Below are positions 7,069-20,368 of a stretch of DNA of 32,000 nucleotides, piece by piece. The notes under the pieces were generated by a model. The model was not told where the DNA came from, did no database searches, and saw only the letters and a program-made list of their open reading frames with translations. The position numbers were made by a program, and so were the translations under genes. This stretch comes from Candidatus Thorarchaeota archaeon (GTDB lineage Archaea > Asgardarchaeota > Heimdallarchaeia > Hodarchaeales > Hodarchaeaceae), in the NCBI GenBank assembly GCA_048882505.1, contig JBHLRO010000002.1, positions 300,001-332,000 on the forward strand. Reading direction: 5' to 3'. The stretch's first letter is position 1, and each line of letters starts with the position of its first letter.

Positions 7069-7776
7069 GTGTACCAACGTAGAATTATAGGATTTTTCCT
7101 CCTGTTTTGCGGATATTTAATTTCCATCTTACTTGTTAATGCGGCTGTAACTGCAAACTGGGGAGATATCGTTAATGTCCGAGCTTCGGTCTATTTGGAT
7201 GCCGCCCACACGGAGGAACTTGAGCAGAACATCAATCTCAGCATAACCAATGTCTACTTGGGTAGGGGCCCTCAAGTACCTCCAGAAATATTGGAATCAT
7301 ATCCTGATGCCGATGCAACGTATTTATTGAAATTTAAAGAAGGAATAATTGGAATGGAGGTCGATGAAACCAAGGAATTTAAAATTGACTCCAAGGATCA
7401 TGCGTACTCCAATTTGGTCGGAAAAGATCTTTACTATATCGTTGTACTTCTCGAAATCGTCTATGACGGGCCTGATCCTACTAGCACTACCACTTCCAAC
7501 GGAGGCCCACCTCCACTTCCCGATTTGACATTTCTGCTTGCTGCTGGAGCTGGGATATCATTACTGGCAGGCGGACTTCTCCTCAGAGGATACAGAACCT
7601 CTCAACGTTTGGAGTCAGTTGCTAACGATAAATCACAGAGAACTGAACAACAGGAACAAATTCTTAAAAAAGAGCAGTCTCAGCTTCAGGAATTGCGGAA
7701 ATTAGCGGAAATTCATTCTGATGCTCAAGACGAATCGCAAGGAAAAGATTTAGTCAAATTTCGGCGTAGAAGGTGA
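7069..7776 (+). CDS. Exported, membrane-anchored FKBP-type peptidyl-prolyl isomerase-like protein
   Basis: Signal peptide; WGDIVNV...FKEGIIGMEVDETKEFKI...LVGKDLYYIVVLLEI matches the SlyD/trigger-factor FKBP core; Thr/Pro linker, TM helix and charged tail follow. Confidence 0.7.
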   Translation: MYQRRIIGFFLLFCGYLISILLVNAAVTANWGDIVNVRASVYLDAAHTEELEQNINLSITNVYLGRGPQVPPEILESYPDADATYLLKFKEGIIGMEVDETKEFKIDSKDHAYSNLVGKDLYYIVVLLEIVYDGPDPTSTTTSNGGPPPLPDLTFLLAAGAGISLLAGGLLLRGYRTSQRLESVANDKSQRTEQQEQILKKEQSQLQELRKLAEIHSDAQDESQGKDLVKFRRRR

Positions 7777-7854: not shown

Positions 7855-8274
7855 TCAATAAAGCGTGACATCCTGCCCTTCATCTGCTGGCCCAAGCAAA
7901 CGGTTCGGAAGTTCAGATTCACCTGACAGTATGCGAATCAGATCAAGTCGAGTCAGGAGAAGTATCCCCACTCTTTTAGCTAATGACTGGGCAGGCTCCG
8001 AAAACAGGTTTGAAACAATTAGGACCTTGGAAATGGTGGGAGTAACCTTTAATAGGTCTTCAGCTCGGAGAATCACGTCTATTCCTACAGAACGTTTCCA
8101 GTCTTTAATCATGACGCCAATTGTCTCCCTGATATCACCATTTTGTATCAGCATGGCTATTGGAGTCCCGATTCCTTGACGACGAGGGTTTTGATTCACG
8201 AGGAATCCTCGTTGACGACAATATTCGAGCATTAGAGCTTTTAACTCAAGTAGTTCTAAATTATCATTCTTCAT
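7855..8274 (-). CDS. Mrr-like restriction-endonuclease-fold protein, probably catalytically degenerate
   Basis: Helix-RGF-V...IAML...GVMIKDWKRSVGIDVI...LIVSNLFSEPAQSLAKRVGILLL follows the Mrr_cat pattern. ATG 8274 overlaps the upstream gene's end by 11 nt (ORF track starts at 8316). Confidence 0.65.
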   Translation of the reverse strand: MKNDNLELLELKALMLEYCRQRGFLVNQNPRRQGIGTPIAMLIQNGDIRETIGVMIKDWKRSVGIDVILRAEDLLKVTPTISKVLIVSNLFSEPAQSLAKRVGILLLTRLDLIRILSGESELPNRLLGPADEGQDVTLY

Positions 8275-9412
8275 GAGAGATCCCTTCAAGGGAGTGTGAT
8301 AAATTTCCCAAATCATACGGGGATTGGAACGTATAATGTTCTAAGAGACCGAATAATGTATTATTCGGGCGATAGGCCTTCTCTCGGCCATCTTTCATTG
8401 GCTGTTCATAAATAATATTCTGCTGCACCAGTTGACGAAGATGGTGGCTGATTGTACCTTTACTTTTCTGGAGTAGATCCACAAGATCCCTGTTTTGTAA
8501 ATAAGTTCTTTCTTTCGCCGTCCAAATCTCATTTTGGGCCTCACGAACAAGAATTTCACGAACAAGGGGAATTTTCGTTCCTGACAATTCCGTTAGAGTT
8601 TCCAAATCTACAGAGAGACTAATTCGAAGGTCATCTTTGGTGGAAGAAAATTTAATGGCTTCTTCCAAAAGTCTCACTGCCAATCCTGGGTTCCCGTGGG
8701 CTAGCGGAGGGATTATTTCTAAGAGCTGCCTAAATTCCACTGAAAGAACTTCATCACCACTACACACTTGTAAACGGCTCTTGATGAGATCTTTAATATT
8801 GGGACTGGTTAAACCGGGCATAAGCGTAAAGAATTGGTAACTACGGTTTCCCGATTTAACTATACAATGCCGCCTGTAAGCTTCCCACTCCGCCAAGTTC
8901 ATTAAGAGGCATACCTTTGTACGTTGTGATTTTCCTGCTCCCTCCATGGAGAGTAGGTCGGGAAGGCTTTGGTGGATGACAAAGGCATTGTCGTAGAATA
9001 TTACATCATTATTTTCTTCCGTTTCTTCAAGAGGTGGCTCCTTTCCTACCTGATTTGGCAGAAGATCTCCAAAAAGAGTCTTTAGATCCTGATATTTAGC
9101 CTTATAACCTTTCTGGTGAAAATATTTTGTACATATCCGAGAAAATATGGTTTTCCCGCTTCCTTGCGGCCCTATGAGAAAACGATAGTGAGGAGCTGGA
9201 TCTTTAAGAAATCGAAAAACTTCGGCTACTAGAAGTTCGAAGTTTTGATTTGCCTCTCGACCGAAAAACGCTGTACCATGCTTAAGAGGGAGCAGAGGAT
9301 CACAAGGATCGCATTCCAATCCCTTCGATTTTCTAATTAGCTCTTCTTCAGCAAGCCGTGCCGCTTTTGTAAACAATTCACTAAGTCCAGAGTCGTATTC
9401 CGATGGGTTCAT
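8264..9412 (-). CDS. AAA+ ATPase with C-terminal ArsR-like winged-helix (paralog B)
   Basis: Walker A GPQGSGKT, Walker B-like VIFYDNA, LIKSRL, AHGNPGLAVRLL, HTH DLVDLLQKSKGTISHHLRQL...DGREKAY. Start ATG 9412 follows GGAGG and forms an ATGA overlap with the upstream stop. Confidence 0.8.
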   Translation of the reverse strand: MNPSEYDSGLSELFTKAARLAEEELIRKSKGLECDPCDPLLPLKHGTAFFGREANQNFELLVAEVFRFLKDPAPHYRFLIGPQGSGKTIFSRICTKYFHQKGYKAKYQDLKTLFGDLLPNQVGKEPPLEETEENNDVIFYDNAFVIHQSLPDLLSMEGAGKSQRTKVCLLMNLAEWEAYRRHCIVKSGNRSYQFFTLMPGLTSPNIKDLIKSRLQVCSGDEVLSVEFRQLLEIIPPLAHGNPGLAVRLLEEAIKFSSTKDDLRISLSVDLETLTELSGTKIPLVREILVREAQNEIWTAKERTYLQNRDLVDLLQKSKGTISHHLRQLVQQNIIYEQPMKDGREKAYRPNNTLFGLLEHYTFQSPYDLGNLSHSLEGISHEE

Positions 9413-10758
9413 AAAACCTCCCTCCGTGTAATTAACAATGCCTCTGGGGCGATGTGAAAGCGTTCTTGGGTTAATCGATGGAAAACCGTAATTATTTCTG
9501 CAGCTGCCGTTACAGGAGACTGCCAATCTACATAATATATTTTTGAGCGCCCATCATGAGCATCATCTTTTGCTCTTAGAATTGGAATAGGGCTTGATGA
9601 GATCAAGGGTTTGAGATGATAATTCATCGTAGAAAGATTGACAGCAAACTGGTCAGCCAGATCAGAGCTTCGTAGGCCACCAACTTCGGTGGGAGGAAAG
9701 AAAAAGCGTTCGCGTGTCTGATGATCCAAAATACTAGCGACAATCTCCCGTCGCTTCAGGCTTAATACACTAGTGACCTCCTCATCCGCTGGGGTATTTA
9801 AGACTTCCACTAACTTAACGGCTGCTTCATATCCTAGTTGTTTGATAACAAAATTTGACAACGCAGCAGTTACCTTTTCCTGATCTTGGATGATTAACTC
9901 GTCGAGGCATGCTGTTGCCAAACGTAAAGCTACCGCAGGGAGTCCCAAACTATGGCTTGCAATGTGATCAATTGCCCGTGAAGAGAATAGATCATTGGGT
10001 CGCCGCACAACTTGCAATCGTCGCTGAATCATTCGTCGGATCTCGTTCGTTGAAAATACGGGGTAAAAAAAGTGATCCGGACTGAAACAGCCATAGAAAT
10101 CCCTGGCAGCACTTTGTTGATCCAATTCCAGAAGACCTGCTAATGTTAAACTCCCTAAGAATCCAATAAGAATGACCCCGTGGGGAGCAGCGGCCTCAAT
10201 TTCTTGCACAAATTGGTTTAGGCGTGGAATTGCAGGATTTCCTGTAATCATAAAGTCAATATCATCCAAAAATACGATTAAAGCTTTATCCATTCTTCGA
10301 ATTTGGTCGAGAAATTCTTCGTATGTTGCTAAAGTCGATTTTGAAGCATCATATGGACCAGTTAGCTCTGTAGGGTCGCTCCAATCCGATAAACATGAAT
10401 ATATGGTTTTAAATTCGTTAAAACCGAAATTAGCCCAGTCACGATGGAATTGCCGAGCGAGACACGATTTACCTCCACCTCTTAGTCCATGAACCAAGAA
10501 ATGACGAAAACGGGAACTCCGATCCTGCTCGAAAAGACGAATGGCATTACCCAACTTTACCGCAAAGTCTACCAAGACATCTTCACGGACTATGTGTAGA
10601 TCCGTGGTCATTGGTTCAATATCTTGAATATTTTGCCTGAAAGGATTGTATTTTAACCCAAAACGCTCATACGGACTTTTCTTAACATAACTGCCTGATC
10701 TTCCTTCTTCTAAGGCCTTTTTGATTTTGTCCGCAAGATTTGCCATGTTTGATACCAT
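9409..10758 (-). CDS. AAA+ ATPase with C-terminal ArsR-like winged-helix (paralog A; ExeA/Cdc6-like)
   Basis: YERFGLKYNPF N-terminal motif, Walker A GLRGGGKS, Walker B IVFLDDID, FSTNEIRRMIQRRL, SLGLPAVALRL, HTH DLADQFAVNLSTMNYHLKPL...DGRSKIYYV; alternative start ATG 10746. Confidence 0.85.
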   Translation of the reverse strand: MVSNMANLADKIKKALEEGRSGSYVKKSPYERFGLKYNPFRQNIQDIEPMTTDLHIVREDVLVDFAVKLGNAIRLFEQDRSSRFRHFLVHGLRGGGKSCLARQFHRDWANFGFNEFKTIYSCLSDWSDPTELTGPYDASKSTLATYEEFLDQIRRMDKALIVFLDDIDFMITGNPAIPRLNQFVQEIEAAAPHGVILIGFLGSLTLAGLLELDQQSAARDFYGCFSPDHFFYPVFSTNEIRRMIQRRLQVVRRPNDLFSSRAIDHIASHSLGLPAVALRLATACLDELIIQDQEKVTAALSNFVIKQLGYEAAVKLVEVLNTPADEEVTSVLSLKRREIVASILDHQTRERFFFPPTEVGGLRSSDLADQFAVNLSTMNYHLKPLISSSPIPILRAKDDAHDGRSKIYYVDWQSPVTAAAEIITVFHRLTQERFHIAPEALLITRREVL

Positions 10759-10869
10759 TAAACTAATTAAGTCTATGTACTCGCGATATCACATTAGATG
10801 ATTGGGCCCGGACAGGGCGACACAGTAAACAATATCCCGCCAAATCCACTTGGCCGAATATGACCGAAC

Positions 10870-11432
10870 TATTCAAACATTTGAAAAATTAAACATATTT
10901 TAAGTTTTCCATTTAACGGTATTGGAGGAATATTCGCTCCCCAATTGTACGAATGATTTATTAACAGGAAGATTCTGTGTCCAAATTCCAATAACCATCA
11001 AAAAAACGGGAAAACCAGCCTATGAAAGAATCAAGGTTATCTTTCCCGCAGCTATTCGAACTGCAATAGATCGAAATCGGCTCATAACTGGCTATATTTA
11101 ACGGAAGATCTACAATTTGACTCAAAATTGATTCCTGGTAAAGGTTACGTTACACAAGCCTATTTTACTAGTATTCAAAGCATTTGAAAACCTAATTAGG
11201 AATATTTGGGTACTATACAATCGACTTCATTATCCTTATGGACGCCCCCAAAATCCAGTAGTCATACCATGGTAGTACATATACGTGCTACCTAGGTCAT
11301 ACCAGAATGTGGTAGACGAGATTTCACAGAAGTCGGTAACAAGAGCGGTTTTTTCTGATATTGATGGATTCGACCTATTCATCGAATTTCATATCCATTC
11401 ATTCGATCTATTAGAACTCTTAAGCATTTGAA
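10870..11432. repeat. Dispersed imperfect palindromic repeat TATTCAAA(G)CATTTGAAAA (two full copies, one partial)
   Basis: 10870-10887 TATTCAAACATTTGAAAA; 11172-11190 TATTCAAAGCATTTGAAAA; partial AAGCATTTGAA at 11422-11432. Confidence 0.6.
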
Positions 11433-11757
11433 CGGACGATCTTCAGATTATGACTTCCGATTCACAAGATGGACGACATATTACCCCGGTATTAACACTT
11501 CTTTAGAAAGGGTTGTTTTAATTCATTTTTCGGGCTAGTTTGATGGATAGTGTGATTACATTTTCCTCCGAAATGATTAAAATTGTCTTAAAATATGGAA
11601 AACAATACATCCATGGAGTAATTACTGAGATTCTCCATGTCTGGTTTTTAGATCAATTTTTAGAGGAAAATTAGCTTATTATTCATGGTGGAACAGGATC
11701 AGAGAATGCTTTCTTCAGGTTTTTAATCTGATCAATGGTCTAACCATTTAAAGCCGA

Positions 11758-12594
11758 CTACGTCCTTAAGATCGCCCGAGGGTTCCGTTTCAGTAATAAT
11801 TCCTCATTTGAAAGATTTGGCGTCCATTCGCCTCTCTTCATTAGCTTAGTTCCTTTTTTAATCTTCTTCAAGATATCATTATGGAATTTAAGCGAAGCTG
11901 CAAATAAGATCAAAGTTCGGGTCATCACATTGTCACTGAGTCGTTTGTCAGTTCCTGAGAGTGTAATATCGTATCGGCCTCCGATATCGAACTTTTTACC
12001 GTTAATGAAACCGAATTCGGTGTTTCCTAGTCCGTTGACGACACGATAATCGATTCCAAGTCCCATCTTATGTTTTAGGATAATGGGAATAAAGCCATCT
12101 TGGGTATTCAGGCGGAACGCAAACCATTCGGGAACGAATATCCACCAACCGCCACGGATTTTATTCAAAGAGATCAAATATTCATGACCGTCGAGCAATA
12201 GGTTAAATGCGGGGAATTCCTTTTGTGATGAGATAGAGCGTGTGAATTCCCGTCCTATTATTTCCTCCAGCGTCCCTTGATAATACATGCTTTTGGAAAA
12301 TAGTTTAATAACGAGCCTTTGATTGAGTTGTTCTTCGTCATCCCATAATCCTTCTCGATAACCCAGGTATCCGATGGTCTCTTCATCGCTGCCATCTTTT
12401 TTTGTCTCCTTAACCTCTCCGAAAAGTTTCATATCTCGTGTAAACTGTCGGGATTTTGCCATGTGCTCTTCGTGTTGTTTAATACCGATGATTTCATCGT
12501 GGAGTTTTGTTTTCCATAGGTCTACTATTACCTTTCGTGTTTTAATAGGTGGAGAAGCTTCTCCTCCTTCACCAACTTCTTCTTGTTCAGTCAT
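11758..12594 (-). CDS. Hypothetical protein, possibly LURP-one/tubby-C/scramblase-like beta-barrel
   Basis: Acidic N-terminus (MTEQEE, ATG 12594; track start 12645). Beta-rich repeats such as KHKMGLGIDYRV...GFINGKKFDIGGRYDI...LILFAASLKF resemble the LURP pattern. Confidence 0.55.
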   Translation of the reverse strand: MTEQEEVGEGGEASPPIKTRKVIVDLWKTKLHDEIIGIKQHEEHMAKSRQFTRDMKLFGEVKETKKDGSDEETIGYLGYREGLWDDEEQLNQRLVIKLFSKSMYYQGTLEEIIGREFTRSISSQKEFPAFNLLLDGHEYLISLNKIRGGWWIFVPEWFAFRLNTQDGFIPIILKHKMGLGIDYRVVNGLGNTEFGFINGKKFDIGGRYDITLSGTDKRLSDNVMTRTLILFAASLKFHNDILKKIKKGTKLMKRGEWTPNLSNEELLLKRNPRAILRT

Positions 12595-12961
12595 AGTTCT
12601 CACACTGAGATCTGTGGTTCTAAGAGAAAGAGGTGTCTTTTTCACTTTTAAGCTTAGCTCAGACTATAATAAGCGTGCAGTTATAATCCATTTAAAACGA
12701 ATCCAACCAGGTACGATTTTAACCTATTCCGAAGGATCTATGGATTGCGTCTGGATACATTGGTTGTAACACCAAATGCTTCGCACTACACCACTTGATA
12801 TCAAAGAAATTTATTCCTCTTTGATACAAAGGTTAATCAATGAAAAGCTCTAAAATTCGACCGCGATGATCAAAGCAGATAAAATATTGATGTAAATACA
12901 CGATACATTCTCCTAGGATGAAGTAAGCTAACACGATTATATTGTAAAAGGTGGTTAATAA

Positions 12962-15217
12962 ATGGCCGATAATTTGTTAGATGTAGAACCTCGCATTTAT
13001 CAACAAATCATATTTTCCGAGGTTGTTTCCAATCCTGGGAATACATTGGTCGTTTTACCTACAGGACTCGGAAAAACTGTGATCATGGCATATCTAACGG
13101 CCTATCACCTAAATAAAAACCCTTCAAATCAAGTACTCATATTAACTCCTACTCGACCACTGGTTCGCCAAATCAAGGAAGTATTAGTTGAGGTTATCCC
13201 GAATCTTTCAGATGAAATGGTATTAGAGATCTCAGGGGATGTTCCACCCAGTAAAAGAGAACCTATATACCCCTCTGCTAGGATAATAGTTGCTACTCCC
13301 CAAACAATCGAGAATGACCTAACATTTGGACGGCTTACCTTTGACCGTATCGGGTTGTTATGTGTCGATGAAGTTCACCGCGCTACTGGTGACTACGCCT
13401 ATGTCGGAATCGCCGCCCAAGCCACATGTCAGGTGGTTGGTTTCACAGCTACACCAGGGAATAATACAGAAAAAATCCTGGAGGTGTGCAACAATCTCAA
13501 AATTTCTAAGGTATCGGTCACCGATGCAAGTGATTCGGATGTAAGCCAATATATCTCTATTCATACTCCCAAGGTGGTTTGGATATCCTTACCACCTGAG
13601 TACGAGGAGATTCTTACTAGTCTTCAAACCTTTCAAGATGAATTAATTGCTGAATTAAAAAAAGGCATTCCCGGAATCTTAACCAAGAAATATGTGGGAA
13701 AACGTGAGGCCTTAGAAATCCACCAGAGGGTCATTATGCTTACAAAACAGGATCAAGCATATGGAAATCTCTTGATGGCATCTTCTAACCTAATTAGGGT
13801 TCAACATTTAAAGGAACTCATTGAAAGCCAAGGATTTCCACAAGCCATAAAGGCGATACAAAAATGGCGCCAAAAGCAGGCATCTAAGGCTCTACGGTTG
13901 TTCCTCGAAGATTCTCGCACTCGCAATATTGAACGTACAATGAAGGAATCTGCGTTAGTTCATCCGAAACTTAAACTCCTTGTCAAAGAAATTCAGGCCG
14001 CACTTAGAGTCGACAAAGCAAGCGAGTCGAAAATCATTGTTTTCAGCAATTATCGGGATACTGTTCGGTTCCTCGATGAAGAACTTGGCAAGACAGACAT
14101 CAAGATAGGGATGTTTCTTGGTCACGCCAGTACTAGAGGAGATAAAGGCTTTTCCCAAAGAAAACAGCTCCAAGTACTGGAGGAATTTAAAAACGGCGAT
14201 ATCCAGGTGTTAGTGAGTACATCAGTGGGAGAAGAGGGATTGGATGTGGGAAACTGCGATCTTGTAGTATTTTATGACTCCGTACCATCTGTTGTTCGTG
14301 CAATTCAGCGCCGAGGGCGTGGAAGGATGAAGGAATCGCGAGTAATTCATCTTGTAACCAAAAAAACGCGTGACGAGGCCATGTATTGGGCCATAAAGCA
14401 AAAGGACAGATTAATGAAGACTTTTTTACGAAGGGAGTTACCCGAGTTGCTTGAAAAGAGTGCAGCTTATAAACACCAACCAACTTTGGATCGGTTCTTT
14501 TCAGATGAAACCGAGGAGTCACCAACCGGGGAGTCGGTAGAAGGCCCCCTAATTATTGTTGATTCGCGTGAGATTCGAGATCAGATTCCTCGATTGCTCA
14601 GAAAAGAAGGCGTACGGATCCGACAGGAGAGACTTGAAGTAGGGGACTATCTACTCTCTGATCGTGTAGTGGTAGAATTAAAGACTTATTCCGATTTCAT
14701 CAGATCTATCCACGATGGGCGTTTATTTCAGCCATCCTCCCCGGGTCATGAGTCCCAACTGATGCGATTGGCACAGCAAACGGTTCCTATACTTGTGGTT
14801 CAGTTGGAATCAGAGGAAATCATCCCGTATGGCTCATTGAACTCAATCATGGGAGCTCTTAGTTCAATCATACTTGATTTTCGAATTCCAATCATATTTA
14901 CGCAATCTCCCTCGGAAACAGCAGCTCTTTTACTACAATTGGCAAAAAGAGAACAGCAAGAAAAAGTAAGTGAGATGGTTTTGCCAAGCGCTGGTAAAAA
15001 GACGCACAGTATTAAGGAAATACAGCTGTTTATACTCTCTACCATTCCCGGAGTCAATCATACCAAGGCCAAGAATTTGCTGGAGAGATTTCCCTCAATT
15101 CAGGCAATTTCGTCAGCTGAAATGAATGATCTAATTAATGTGCCTCAAATAGGGGAAAAACTTGCAAAGCGTATTCAGGCAATTTTTAACTCCCCCGAAG
15201 ATCGTGAAATTCCTTGA
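12962..15217 (+). CDS. hef: Hef: SF2 helicase + ERCC4/XPF nuclease + HhH (FANCM/XPF family)
   Basis: PRIYQ Q-motif, LPTGLGKT, DEVH, FTATPG, EEGLDV, QRRGRGR; then IIVDSRE, GDY, ELKTYSDF; two HhH motifs (PGVNHTKA, PQIGEKLA). Confidence 0.95.
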   Translation: MADNLLDVEPRIYQQIIFSEVVSNPGNTLVVLPTGLGKTVIMAYLTAYHLNKNPSNQVLILTPTRPLVRQIKEVLVEVIPNLSDEMVLEISGDVPPSKREPIYPSARIIVATPQTIENDLTFGRLTFDRIGLLCVDEVHRATGDYAYVGIAAQATCQVVGFTATPGNNTEKILEVCNNLKISKVSVTDASDSDVSQYISIHTPKVVWISLPPEYEEILTSLQTFQDELIAELKKGIPGILTKKYVGKREALEIHQRVIMLTKQDQAYGNLLMASSNLIRVQHLKELIESQGFPQAIKAIQKWRQKQASKALRLFLEDSRTRNIERTMKESALVHPKLKLLVKEIQAALRVDKASESKIIVFSNYRDTVRFLDEELGKTDIKIGMFLGHASTRGDKGFSQRKQLQVLEEFKNGDIQVLVSTSVGEEGLDVGNCDLVVFYDSVPSVVRAIQRRGRGRMKESRVIHLVTKKTRDEAMYWAIKQKDRLMKTFLRRELPELLEKSAAYKHQPTLDRFFSDETEESPTGESVEGPLIIVDSREIRDQIPRLLRKEGVRIRQERLEVGDYLLSDRVVVELKTYSDFIRSIHDGRLFQPSSPGHESQLMRLAQQTVPILVVQLESEEIIPYGSLNSIMGALSSIILDFRIPIIFTQSPSETAALLLQLAKREQQEKVSEMVLPSAGKKTHSIKEIQLFILSTIPGVNHTKAKNLLERFPSIQAISSAEMNDLINVPQIGEKLAKRIQAIFNSPEDREIP

Positions 15218-18083: not shown

Positions 18084-19391
18084 CTGTCTTTACCGGACTG
18101 GTTCATACTCAAAACTCCTCCTGACCTCAGTCTTGACATGCTAGATTGGAAAAAGTTTGCGCTAGATCGAATCAGATTGCTTGAAGATCTTCCGAGAAAT
18201 CCCTCACGAGTGATCCACGACACTTTCCCCTACCATGATGTTGGGCTTCCAGAAATCTATAAGAACTACTTATTGGGCGCCTATTTACTTCGGTTGGTTG
18301 CTGCAACCAATAGAAGACTTGAAGCGTGGCTTATTGAAACAGAAGGAGATCTCTTCCAACAATTATACTTTGATCGTGTCGAGTCACGCGAAGAACGAAC
18401 TGAATTTTTCCAGGCAGTATTTGGTTCGGAAAATGTTATGCATTATGAAGACTTTAAGTCCACCATGGACGAATCTCAAAATCCCCACCTCACCCAATTA
18501 TACGAGGATATTCATTTTGGCCAGAAAGGAGGCTCGCGTAGAGATTTCATCATCTGTGTGCATTTTACTCAAGTCCCCTGGATGGTAGCCAATAGGCGAG
18601 GTTATCTGCGTAAAGGGTGGGTAATATCCAGTGAAACCGATTTTAGGGGGAGCCTCAAGAAGGCCTTTGAACAAAAACTTGAACACGAAATCGAGAAGGC
18701 TCAAAATCTACTGGGTCTTCGTGAGGATATTGACCAAACTGTTCAAGAAATTGAACAACATTTAGCTCAACACGTTCAAATTCGATCCCAATTTGGAGAA
18801 ATTGACCTTGAAGGGTACGATATACACACAAATCCCGAGCTCTTCCCCCCCTGCATGGCATACCTTTCTATGGAGCTTGAACGCTCAGGTAGACTAACCC
18901 ATGTTCATCGTCTTCAATTGGGATTTTTTTTGAAGAAAACGGGAATGTCTGTGGACGAACAGCTCCAATATTGGTATGAAAAGTCAGTAGACAACGTTGG
19001 CGTGAGTTTTTCTACATTCCAACGACAGGCTGGTTACCAAATAAGGCATTTGTATGGTCTTGAGGGAGGGCGTACTGATTATCATGTTCCAAAATGCTCC
19101 ACAATAGCTACAAGCTATTTCTGTCCGTTTGTTCATCTCGCACCTGATCTTTTGACAAAATACTTAAAGGCTAATGCACTGAATCGTAGTAATACCCGGC
19201 CGACTCCAGATAACCAGATTACTCGAATTGTAGGAAGGAGTGCGAGCGATCCTACTCTAGCTTGCACTTGGTTCTTTCGTATTATTTATGGTCGGTCTGC
19301 TCCTCGTAAGATTGTCCATCCATTACAGTGGACTTTGGCCGCATCTGAACTAAAATCGGGATCTAGTGACGAGACACGTGAGGTACAATGA
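18084..19391 (+). CDS. priL: DNA primase large subunit, eukaryote (p58/Pri2)-like; true start probably upstream of ATG 18138
   Basis: FPPCM, HVHRLQLGFFLK, YQIRHLYGLEGGRTDY, PKC, FCPFVH, LAC and HPLQ match the human p58 Fe-S domain with 4 Cys. The frame is open from 18081, and its PP-x13-LDR motif aligns with p58. Confidence 0.95.
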   Translation: MSLPDWFILKTPPDLSLDMLDWKKFALDRIRLLEDLPRNPSRVIHDTFPYHDVGLPEIYKNYLLGAYLLRLVAATNRRLEAWLIETEGDLFQQLYFDRVESREERTEFFQAVFGSENVMHYEDFKSTMDESQNPHLTQLYEDIHFGQKGGSRRDFIICVHFTQVPWMVANRRGYLRKGWVISSETDFRGSLKKAFEQKLEHEIEKAQNLLGLREDIDQTVQEIEQHLAQHVQIRSQFGEIDLEGYDIHTNPELFPPCMAYLSMELERSGRLTHVHRLQLGFFLKKTGMSVDEQLQYWYEKSVDNVGVSFSTFQRQAGYQIRHLYGLEGGRTDYHVPKCSTIATSYFCPFVHLAPDLLTKYLKANALNRSNTRPTPDNQITRIVGRSASDPTLACTWFFRIIYGRSAPRKIVHPLQWTLAASELKSGSSDETREVQ

Positions 19392-20368
19392 CCCTTTACC
19401 AAAAACGACAGCTGATCCGGGATTACTACGCGACGTATTTTGACCTCCAAGACTTGTCCAATATTATTGATCTCACTAATTTCTCATGTCGGGAGTTTGG
19501 ATTTATCAGTCTACACGGAAAATTCTTTAGGAACCTCTCGTTTGACACACCTCATGAGCTTGTCGATTTCTTGGTTGACCGAACCCCAACGGACGTATAT
19601 GTTGGCGCCGTTTTTGACACTCCCCCAACACGGGAGACACCAATTCATACTCTCGAATGGAGGGGTCATGAGTTAGTATTTGATCTTGATCTCACAGATT
19701 ATGATGCGGTTCGGAAGTTCATCTGTTCTTGTCAAGGAGCAGAACAGGTTTGTCACAATTGTTGGCAATTGATAACCCTTGCAATAGAAATCATCGATGA
19801 AACCCTAAGTATGGATTTTGGGCTAGAAAGCATAACATGGGTGTTTTCAGGACGTAGGGGAGTACATGGGTGGATAAAAGACAATATTGGGTTTAATCTT
19901 GATCAGGAACAGCGTAAGGCGATTGTTGACTATATGTCAATTGTACATGGTGAAGGAGAGACTGCTCGTGTTCATGATCGGACAAAACTCAGGTATGATT
20001 TTCGTAAACGTATTGAACAAACTGTTTTCAGGTATTTTCTCAGAAATATCAAGCGGAAAGACTTAATCGAGCTAGGATTCAGTTCAAATTCGGCATCTGA
20101 TGTAATTCGACAATTAAAACATCAGGACGGGATAATCGATGAAAATTTCACGCGAAGATTCAATCTGAATCTCGCTAAGATAAATAAATATGATGAAATC
20201 CTTCGACGTTGGGCCCCGCGAATCGACCACAAGGTAACCATCGATCTCCGTCGGTTGCTTCGACTTCCAACATCTATTCATGGCAAAACGGGCCATGTGG
20301 CTCGTATTCTGCTAACAAAAGATATTCTTTCATTTGACCCCGAGTCTGAAGAATCGATATTTTTATGA
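19388..20368 (+). CDS. priS: DNA primase small (catalytic) subunit, eukaryote (p48/Pri1)-like
   Basis: REFGF, ELVFDLDLTDYD catalytic DxD, Zn knuckle CSC-x5-CHNC, FSGRRGVH, PRIDHKVT...LLRLPTSIHGKTG; ATGA overlap with priL. Confidence 0.97.
   Translation: MTLYQKRQLIRDYYATYFDLQDLSNIIDLTNFSCREFGFISLHGKFFRNLSFDTPHELVDFLVDRTPTDVYVGAVFDTPPTRETPIHTLEWRGHELVFDLDLTDYDAVRKFICSCQGAEQVCHNCWQLITLAIEIIDETLSMDFGLESITWVFSGRRGVHGWIKDNIGFNLDQEQRKAIVDYMSIVHGEGETARVHDRTKLRYDFRKRIEQTVFRYFLRNIKRKDLIELGFSSNSASDVIRQLKHQDGIIDENFTRRFNLNLAKINKYDEILRRWAPRIDHKVTIDLRRLLRLPTSIHGKTGHVARILLTKDILSFDPESEESIFL

Follow-up and report, generated by a model that had tools for sequence, protein, structure and literature searches.

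Organization of the locus

We analyzed a 32,000-nt stretch of DNA, hereafter the window, that spans positions 300,001 to 332,000 of contig JBHLRO010000002.1 (assembly GCA_048882505.1) from a Candidatus Thorarchaeota archaeon of the Hodarchaeaceae. The analysis centers on a three-gene operon encoding two related AAA+ ATPases (A and B) and a nuclease-fold protein (C), together with the DNA upstream of it. In window coordinates, the operon and its upstream gap are laid out as follows.

9409..10758, minus strand: gene A, 449 residues; A-type AAA+ protein (Orc1/Cdc6-like) with lid and ArsR-type winged helix, assigned from its translation, relatives, and fold matches
8264..9412, minus strand: gene B, 382 residues; fast-evolving B-type paralog of A with an ArsR-type winged helix
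7855..8274, minus strand: gene C, 139 residues; stand-alone Mrr_cat protein of the PD-(D/E)xK fold, assigned from its translation and Mrr_cat match
10759..11757, no strand assigned: 1-kb gap upstream of A, free of open reading frames (ORFs) and Rfam matches in the respective scans; holds the array elements described below

Genes A and B overlap by 4 nt (ATGA at 9409-9412) and genes B and C by 11 nt (8264-8274), and the translations and overlaps agree with the three overlapping minus-strand ORFs described in the initial annotation, which had been made from the sequence alone. Overlaps of the same 4 and 11 nt are also found in orthologous loci (e.g., L004, L027, L028, and L034), indicating that the coupling at both junctions is a conserved feature rather than chance. 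The first methionine of the A orthologues, and of the corresponding ESM Atlas record, is the MANL/MTKL methionine, which is the second methionine of the window ORF; A therefore probably starts at 10746 instead of 10758. An Rfam scan of the whole window returned no matches, and no homologues of the genes located 5′ of A in two relatives (L001 and L004) were found within the 10759-11757 gap.

A and B are paralogs with an Orc1/Cdc6-like fold

Profile-profile comparison revealed that A and B are homologous across nearly their full length (probability 98.2%, E value 3e-14, 334 columns). Their AlphaFold models, with mean predicted local distance difference test (pLDDT) scores of 72.8 for A and 79.5 for B, share the three-domain architecture of Orc1/Cdc6 proteins: an AAA+ base, a helical lid, and a C-terminal winged helix. 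These results uphold the earlier description of A and B as paralogs of one architecture, and every motif then quoted is present in the translations (GLRGGGKS, FLDDID, SLGLPAVAL, ERFGLKYNPF, and HDGRSKIYY in A; GPQGSGKT, IFYDNAF, HGNPGLAV, and KDGREKAYR in B). Both proteins end shortly past the winged helix, and neither the translations nor the models hold a sensor repeat domain there.

Foldseek ranked the Saccharolobus (S.) solfataricus Orc1/Cdc6 heterodimer (2qby), in which Orc1-1 and Orc1-3 sit together on origin DNA, first for both A and B, making it the best full-length structural match; eukaryotic origin recognition complex (ORC)/Cdc6 subunits, RuvB, and clamp-loader subunits ranked below it. 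For the ESM Atlas model of A, the nearest neighbor was a 410-residue archaeal cluster without a name, followed by ORC1-type clusters at a template modeling (TM) score of ~0.53. The β2-β3 region, where an initiator-specific helical insert would lie, is modeled as one helix plus a low-confidence loop (A 127-145, B 115-136). The likeness to Orc1/Cdc6 extends to the LDDID Walker B motif of A, which resembles LDEID, to the position of the gene beside repeats that are presumably bound, and to two paralogs that may cooperate.

Despite this Orc1/Cdc6-like fold, A and B are not members of the Orc1/Cdc6 family as curated, as follows from their failure against the family model and from their tree position. 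Against TIGR02928 they score 15.9 bits (A) and 13.9 bits (B) versus a cut-off of 181.3, whereas four canonical Orc1/Cdc6 loci elsewhere in the same genome pass with 183-427 bits. In a quick phylogenetic tree that used three of these four canonical proteins as the outgroup, all three fell outside the A/B superfamily, with a Shimodaira-Hasegawa-like approximate likelihood ratio test (SH-aLRT) value of 100; a fourth outgroup row, which represented a wrong ORF, was disregarded. Neither A nor B matched Cdc6_lid (PF22703) or WHD_Cdc6 (PF09079) in Pfam at E values up to 1. A and B further differ from Orc1/Cdc6 proteins in their ArsR-type winged helix, in lacking a sensor-2 arginine and a conserved catalytic glutamate, and in having an Mrr-fold partner that is obligatory here.

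Other curated families did not claim the two proteins. For A, only sub-threshold matches were obtained (AAA_16, AAA_14, NACHT, and TniB) along with a weak match to HTH_20, and for B the sole model above its cut-off was the ArsR-type HTH_5 at the C-terminus. The N-terminal FGLxxNPF of A resembles ExeA/AAA_22-type ATPases, and some relatives have been automatically named ExeA by the Joint Genome Institute (JGI); A nevertheless reaches only 12.7 bits against AAA_22/ExeA (PF13401) versus a cut-off of 27. Scores against nSTAND5 (22.1 bits versus 34), NACHT (16.7 versus 26.7), and nSTAND6 (12.1 versus 27.7) were likewise below cut-off. Profile searches of solved structures with A, B, and C gave nothing significant past the P-loop and helix-turn-helix pieces. 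The PABY2304-type "archaeal ATPase" family (2qen; ATPase_2) differs as well, with no ATPase_2 match listed for A or B and sub-threshold matches only in distant members; that family is not known to have an Mrr partner or a repeat array.

Among the defense models of PADLOC-DB 2.0, A matched nothing below an E value of 0.03, B matched only winged-helix parts of CARF/Csa3 models, and C matched REase_II at an E value of 0.015. Our literature search found no description of the A/B family, and a survey of the Asgard replisome treats only Cdc6-1 and Cdc6-2 while counting ORC2-5 as eukaryotic gains (PMC12680538). The initial annotation had not recognized the trio as a named system, and this assessment stands: no named family accommodates A or B, and no PADLOC defense system was matched.

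Hydrolysis motifs have decayed in both ATPases

Comparison of orthologues revealed contrasting conservation within the AAA+ modules. Across 26 A orthologues, the GLRGxGKS P-loop, D168 (the aspartate three residues past Walker B), and the recognition helix NLSTMNYHLKPL are invariant, whereas the residue following the Walker B aspartate may be D, N, S, or C, the Walker B aspartate itself is asparagine in some, and the sensor-2 position reads GIPxVAL without an arginine. GPxGSGKT does not vary across 24 B orthologues; their Walker B reads D(N/K/R/Q), with no acidic catalytic residue, and their sensor 2 is GNPG, again without an arginine. A DE(I/V)D Walker B with catalytic glutamate and a sensor-2 arginine (GDAR) are thus found in neither protein. 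The absence of GDAR, which had already been pointed out for the window proteins, extends across the orthologues; the proposed division into an active A and a less active B is not supported, given that the Walker B residue of A is variable and that A, like B, has no sensor-2 arginine.

The combination of invariant P-loops and decayed hydrolysis motifs suggests that A and B are nucleotide binders with weak or no hydrolysis. Meanwhile, the winged-helix recognition helix ST(I/L/M)xYHL is kept over the whole A/B family. The pair thereby appears to be a natural case of initiator-like AAA+ proteins in which decay of the catalytic residues goes together with probable retention of nucleotide binding and DNA reading, the same trend as in eukaryotic ORC subunits.

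Protein C is a stand-alone Mrr-fold protein

C passes the Pfam Mrr_cat model (PF04471) with 34.2 bits versus a cut-off of 21 (E value 2.9e-8, residues 5-115), and all 16 C-family members examined match it, with a best E value of 7e-14; six of the 16 also weakly match NA-iREase1. Structural neighbors of C in the ESM Atlas are Mrr_cat clusters at TM scores of 0.65-0.73. The presence of a nuclease-fold partner, as claimed earlier, is therefore confirmed, and this partner is conserved with the ATPases.

The canonical catalytic residues, D...(D/E/Q)xK, however, appear not to be conserved. The invariant block of the family is DW(K/R)R, and the aspartate expected on the second strand (the first catalytic Asp) is present in most copies but is alanine in the window and in its closest relative (L010) and asparagine or histidine elsewhere. 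K57 is replaced by arginine in the sister lineage, and K60 by arginine in L039 and L040. As a single domain of 139 residues, C has no Mrr-type N-terminal DNA-reading domain. Complex prediction of A, B, and C with C as the partner returned a score of 0.00, which is uninformative in either direction.

The trio is a conserved operon of Hodarchaeales

Relatives of A fall into 42 clusters at 38-95% identity, every one of them from Heimdall/Hodarchaeales assemblies. B, which evolves faster, has 33 relatives, and C has 117, all within Hodarchaeales-type assemblies. A profile search of 1.84 billion representatives returned only 12 proteins below 1e-30, followed by a graded tail of AAA+/winged-helix proteins of 400-490 residues; those tail proteins that were looked up are Asgard too, and none exceeds a Pfam ATPase cut-off. 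A survey sample of 300 genomes from the phylum included 20 other genomes of the window's family; 16 of these carry a strong A orthologue, the remaining four being 70-87% complete, and weaker relatives occur in several other families.

Scanning of the fetched loci with custom hidden Markov models (HMMs) identified the A-B-C trio in at least 12 species. A diverged trio in the order B-type, A-type, C is present in a sister lineage (L046 and L056-L058), where the two types were called by the DPLLPL and NLST(L/M)xYHLKPL signatures and where the ATPases match the A profile only at E values of 1e-19 to 1e-27. More distant family members are tandem pairs or singletons. Four species carry A and C only, separated by a 70-nt spacer, with no B anywhere in the genome. 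Co-occurrence of the three genes beyond the window, which the initial annotation had named as a check on its proposal, is thus established. A and B may form a heteromer, as it suggested, although B is dispensable in the four species with only A and C.

The neighbors of the family trios are consistently a PAC2 gene, response regulators, a convergent gene for a 235-residue membrane protein, a gene for a 295-residue protein, and Hef, with PriL/PriS in this window. Those of the distant members are heterogeneous (molybdopterin genes, HD domain, HTH_10, and methyltransferase), and no shared partner emerged. On the evidence of this distribution and of the syntenic housekeeping neighbors, sequence comparison gives the trio locus the pattern of a single-copy, vertically inherited core operon across Hodarchaeales rather than that of a defense island or mobile element. 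Its conservation across the order and its setting among replication and repair genes suggest that the function of the trio is probably part of core chromosome biology.

This inheritance bears directly on the possibility that the trio is an antiviral or conflict system, in which A and B would be a STAND/AAA+-like nucleic-acid sensor and C a cutting effector or an inactive restriction endonuclease (REase) acting as a sensor. The union of AAA+/STAND NTPases with Mrr-type or inactive REase domains is a known conflict-system theme, exemplified by NA-iREase1 (PF22722) and by bacterial Mrr_cat+RuvB_N fusions held in the ESM Atlas, and the trio shares with it a P-loop NTPase/winged helix tied to a possibly degenerate REase-fold module. 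The weak NA-iREase1 matches of C, the sub-threshold matches of A and B to nSTAND, NACHT, and BrxC_BrxD, and a distant pair followed by NurA and HerA point the same way. Yet the modules are encoded here by separate genes, the repeat domain of a sensor is absent, the PADLOC models match only winged-helix pieces, and the catalytic residues of C appear unconserved. The near-universal, single-copy occurrence within the family, beside conserved housekeeping neighbors, is moreover not the patchy pattern of a defense system and lacks a defense-island context, and we regard this explanation as unlikely. McrBC offers a comparable two-component logic, in which a site-reading AAA+ oligomer works with a separate REase-fold subunit; McrB, however, is a GTPase with an N-terminal reader, McrC is much larger than C, the McrBC restriction system is mobile, and no relationship between the sequences was detected.

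The same synteny argues against a domesticated Tn7-like remnant, with C as a TnsA-like REase-fold nuclease and A and B as TnsC/TniB-like DNA-bound AAA+ regulators. A preprint reports Tn7-family elements in Asgard archaea (bioRxiv 10.1101/2025.07.27.667033). A does have a sub-threshold TniB match, but this match reaches 15 bits versus a cut-off of 22.4 and covers the P-loop only, and the structural Z score on the TnsC/TniB side is tied with generic AAA+ modules. No TniB/TnsC model scored above its cut-off, no TnsA match is listed for C in Pfam (E value up to 1), and no linked transposase, TniQ, or element ends are present, while the chromosomal synteny is stable. A Tn7 origin of the trio is accordingly very improbable.

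A direct-repeat array lies upstream of gene A

Alignment of the DNA 5′ of A from 12 species revealed one near-invariant block, located 120-235 nt before the A start codon. It consists of a box resembling a TATA element with its transcription factor B recognition element (BRE), followed by three head-to-tail 9-bp units, TAGTTCGA(A/T), TAGTTCGAT, and TTGATTCGAT. An extra unit often lies just 5′ of the TATA-like box, and there is one more close to a second, proximal TATA-like box. The window carries the following counterparts.

10854..10878, minus strand: degenerate triple-repeat array, GTTTGAA-TAGTTCGGT-CATATTCGG, homologous to TAGTTCGAA-TAGTTCGAT-TTGATTCGAT of relatives; presumed site of A, with or without B
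10882..10905, minus strand: AT-rich TATA/BRE-like stretch directly upstream of the array; a TATA-like box is present in every aligned locus
11052..11063, minus strand: isolated distal repeat CAGTTCGAATAG, close to the consensus and ~315 nt upstream of A
11170-11195 and 11365-11435: incomplete duplicates of the promoter-proximal box (TTTCAAATGCTTTGAATA) in the gap, around 11178 and 11422

The array is conserved and nearly unique in the genome. Allowing at most one mismatch, the 16-mer GTTCGAWTAGTTCGAT was found 5′ of A in each of the eight family genomes searched, seven of which contain no other match; G256 holds a second, one-mismatch copy 4.5 kb away. Sister-lineage trios carry the identical unit three times, ~25 nt behind a TTTTTAAA box, and the distal single repeat also has copies in L056 and L058. 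Distant family members have their own TTCGAA arrays of 9-bp period beside AT-rich boxes. The pattern TTCGA-N4-TTCGA has 30 matches in 10.85 kb of upstream DNA (20 of 31 loci) versus two in the remaining 403 kb of the same loci and 24 in a whole genome of 4.3 Mb, where most lie within coding sequence. Among the array-bearing loci, the family gene is the sole common denominator; together with the conserved recognition helix, this makes the family members the predicted array binders, and their binding to these arrays is the simplest reading of the sequence pattern.

The 60 bp of lowest GC in the entire window (10857-10917, GC 0.20) coincide with the array and TATA-like stretch. This raises the question of whether array and AT-rich flank represent a secondary origin or a segregation or organizing site, with A and B as a dedicated ORC-like recognition complex and C as a structural or nicking subunit. 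In archaea, an Orc1/Cdc6-like fold encoded beside its own repeat array is the signature of an origin; the array here is present essentially once per genome, and replication and repair genes (Hef and PriL/PriS, listed below) are nearby; direct repeats flanking a promoter also resemble plasmid centromeres such as parC. However, the same genome encodes its canonical Orc1/Cdc6 set elsewhere, and the repeats here are short tandem 9-mers, unlike the inverted origin recognition box (ORB) elements that surround a long unwinding element, and the AT-rich stretch spans only ~60 bp. The locus has no linked MCM, Cdt1/WhiP, or ParA partner, and GC skew along the 452-kb contig is uninformative, with nothing more than a weak, broad maximum at ~255-290 kb. 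With an array of its own beside each distant family member, the pattern resembles autoregulation more than a multitude of origins, and an origin or centromere-like role appears distinctly unlikely.

Several further elements were observed in the upstream DNA. Three TCGA(A/T) sites are clustered in the gap at 21- and 12-nt spacing, alongside the box duplicates at 11170-11195 and 11365-11435, and together these may possibly be decayed array copies. In L004, L026, L027, L029, L030, and L031, the interval from the array to the start codon contains blocks conserved in this subset (AAAATCCAAAAATCGAAC, ATGGGTACGGA, GTTYGATGAG, and a proximal TTTTGATATAT box), which could represent additional sites for proteins or another promoter. 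The 175-205-nt leader of eight relatives, folded jointly with RNAalifold, yielded -6.3 kcal/mol and hardly any covariation, leaving a conserved RNA structure unsupported. Two candidate signals were discarded. A TTCAAA-N2-3-TTTGAA dyad, considered as a conserved operator, occurs only in the window and its closest relative and is the edge of the degenerate first repeat. TTCGAA, considered as a restricted site, has 1789 genomic copies versus ~1370 expected from base composition.

A proposed nucleotide-switched assembly on the array

To account for these features, we propose that an ATP-switched, head-to-tail assembly nucleates on the array and autoregulates the operon, with C as an accessory subunit; from the sequence evidence we put the probability of this reading at about one half. 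An old duplication within an Asgard-restricted Orc1/Cdc6-like AAA+ family with an ArsR-type winged helix gave rise to A and B. The winged-helix recognition helix ST(I/L/M)xYHL would read TTCGA-core 9-bp units (the A-type unit being TAGTTCGA(A/T)), present as three head-to-tail copies plus flanking singles at the TATA-like box upstream of the operon. ATP-bound A, plus B where present, would assemble head-to-tail on the array, so that the AAA+ module serves as a nucleotide switch for oligomerization and not as a motor. By occupying sites beside or adjoining the TATA box, the assembly would occlude the promoter, rendering the operon autoregulated. It would also build a nucleoprotein complex on the chromosome, at a site that is present essentially once per genome, and C may be recruited there as an accessory DNA-binding or DNA-cleaving subunit.

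The geometry of the array agrees with this: direct repeats spaced by about one helical turn fit head-to-tail AAA+ oligomerization better than a dimeric palindrome reader. With the operon's own promoter as the clear site, what matters biologically may be the nucleoprotein complex as such or an activity of C, and our guess for the downstream role is the regulation of a DNA transaction. A precedent for a role in transcriptional regulation is provided by Orc1-2, an Orc1/Cdc6 protein of Sulfolobales that is reported to act as a regulator of the DNA damage response (PMC12490963).

Several observations weigh against this proposal. No regulon was found, the sole clear site being the operon's own promoter, with no visible output. 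The window array is degenerate and retains no exact TTCGA pair, and no array was seen in the upstream DNA of Candidatus Hodarchaeum mangrovi (L003). Part of the family has a second TATA-like box ~40 nt before the ATG, so the array may be part of a distal promoter or of some different element. The enrichment counts overstate independence because the loci are related and represent approximately five independent clades. Finally, the nuclease association (Mrr here, NurA and HerA after the distant pair) would equally fit defense or repair, and on the defense reading the array would be a mere operator of a self-repressed defense operon, as with BrxR/CapW-type regulators.

The initial annotation had left the role open among initiation, segregation, regulation, and defense. 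This list is narrowed by synteny and by a conserved cis-array that occurs essentially once per genome, which favor a site-specific chromosomal or regulatory role over defense. A stronger version of such a role is that A, B, and C form a heteromeric ORC-like complex, with two hydrolysis-impaired AAA+/winged-helix subunits and a degenerate nuclease-fold subunit, that marks one chromosomal site by polymerizing on the direct repeats, as an origin, centromere-like, or chromosome-organizing element distinct from canonical Orc1/Cdc6 origins. We consider this version unlikely. If true, it would represent archaeal initiator heteromerization with non-catalytic subunits, as in eukaryotic ORC.

Initiator-like AAA+/winged-helix proteins encoded beside their own repeats are already known; what is new here is an ancient, putatively heteromeric pair, the Mrr-fold subunit, and the defined 9-bp array. 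The locus would thereby define a previously uncharacterized, Asgard-restricted family of ORC/Cdc6-like DNA-binding ATPases along with its likely recognition sequence. What had been a "hypothetical" operon also becomes a protein-DNA system open to direct testing, comprising a 25-60-bp site, three small soluble proteins, and clear mutants. Among known archaea, Hodarchaeales rank with the closest relatives of eukaryotes, and this lineage is pivotal to models of how eukaryotes arose.

Neighboring genes and further family members

The following genes accompany the operon in the window or represent the family elsewhere in the genome.

7069-7776, plus strand: 235-residue protein with hydrophobic segments at both termini, a Pro/Thr linker, and a charged tail; no Pfam match
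11758-12645, minus strand: 295-residue protein without a Pfam family, 73% identical to its counterparts in relatives
12962-15217, plus strand: full-length Hef (helicase, ERCC4 nuclease, and helix-hairpin-helix), 2.2 kb from the trio
18138-20368, plus strand: PriL and PriS, the large and small subunits of DNA primase, as an overlapping pair
C4:159918-161075 (L053 6919-8076), minus strand: third, distant family member of the same genome, 385 residues

The gene for the 235-residue protein is convergent to C in every locus checked, including Candidatus Hodarchaeum mangrovi, at 33-35% identity. The 295-residue protein adjoins Hef in the relatives checked (L001, L004, and L010), and the linkage of Hef to the trio persists in several relatives. 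In another Asgard assembly (L013 1284-6848), tandem family members of 442 and 436 residues are followed by NurA-like and HerA-like (DUF87) genes, constituting a second, different nuclease association of the family. The third family member of the window's genome adjoins an HTH_10 regulator and an HD-domain gene, has its own upstream TTCGAA/TTCAAA array of 9-bp units, and has orthologues in two sister genomes.

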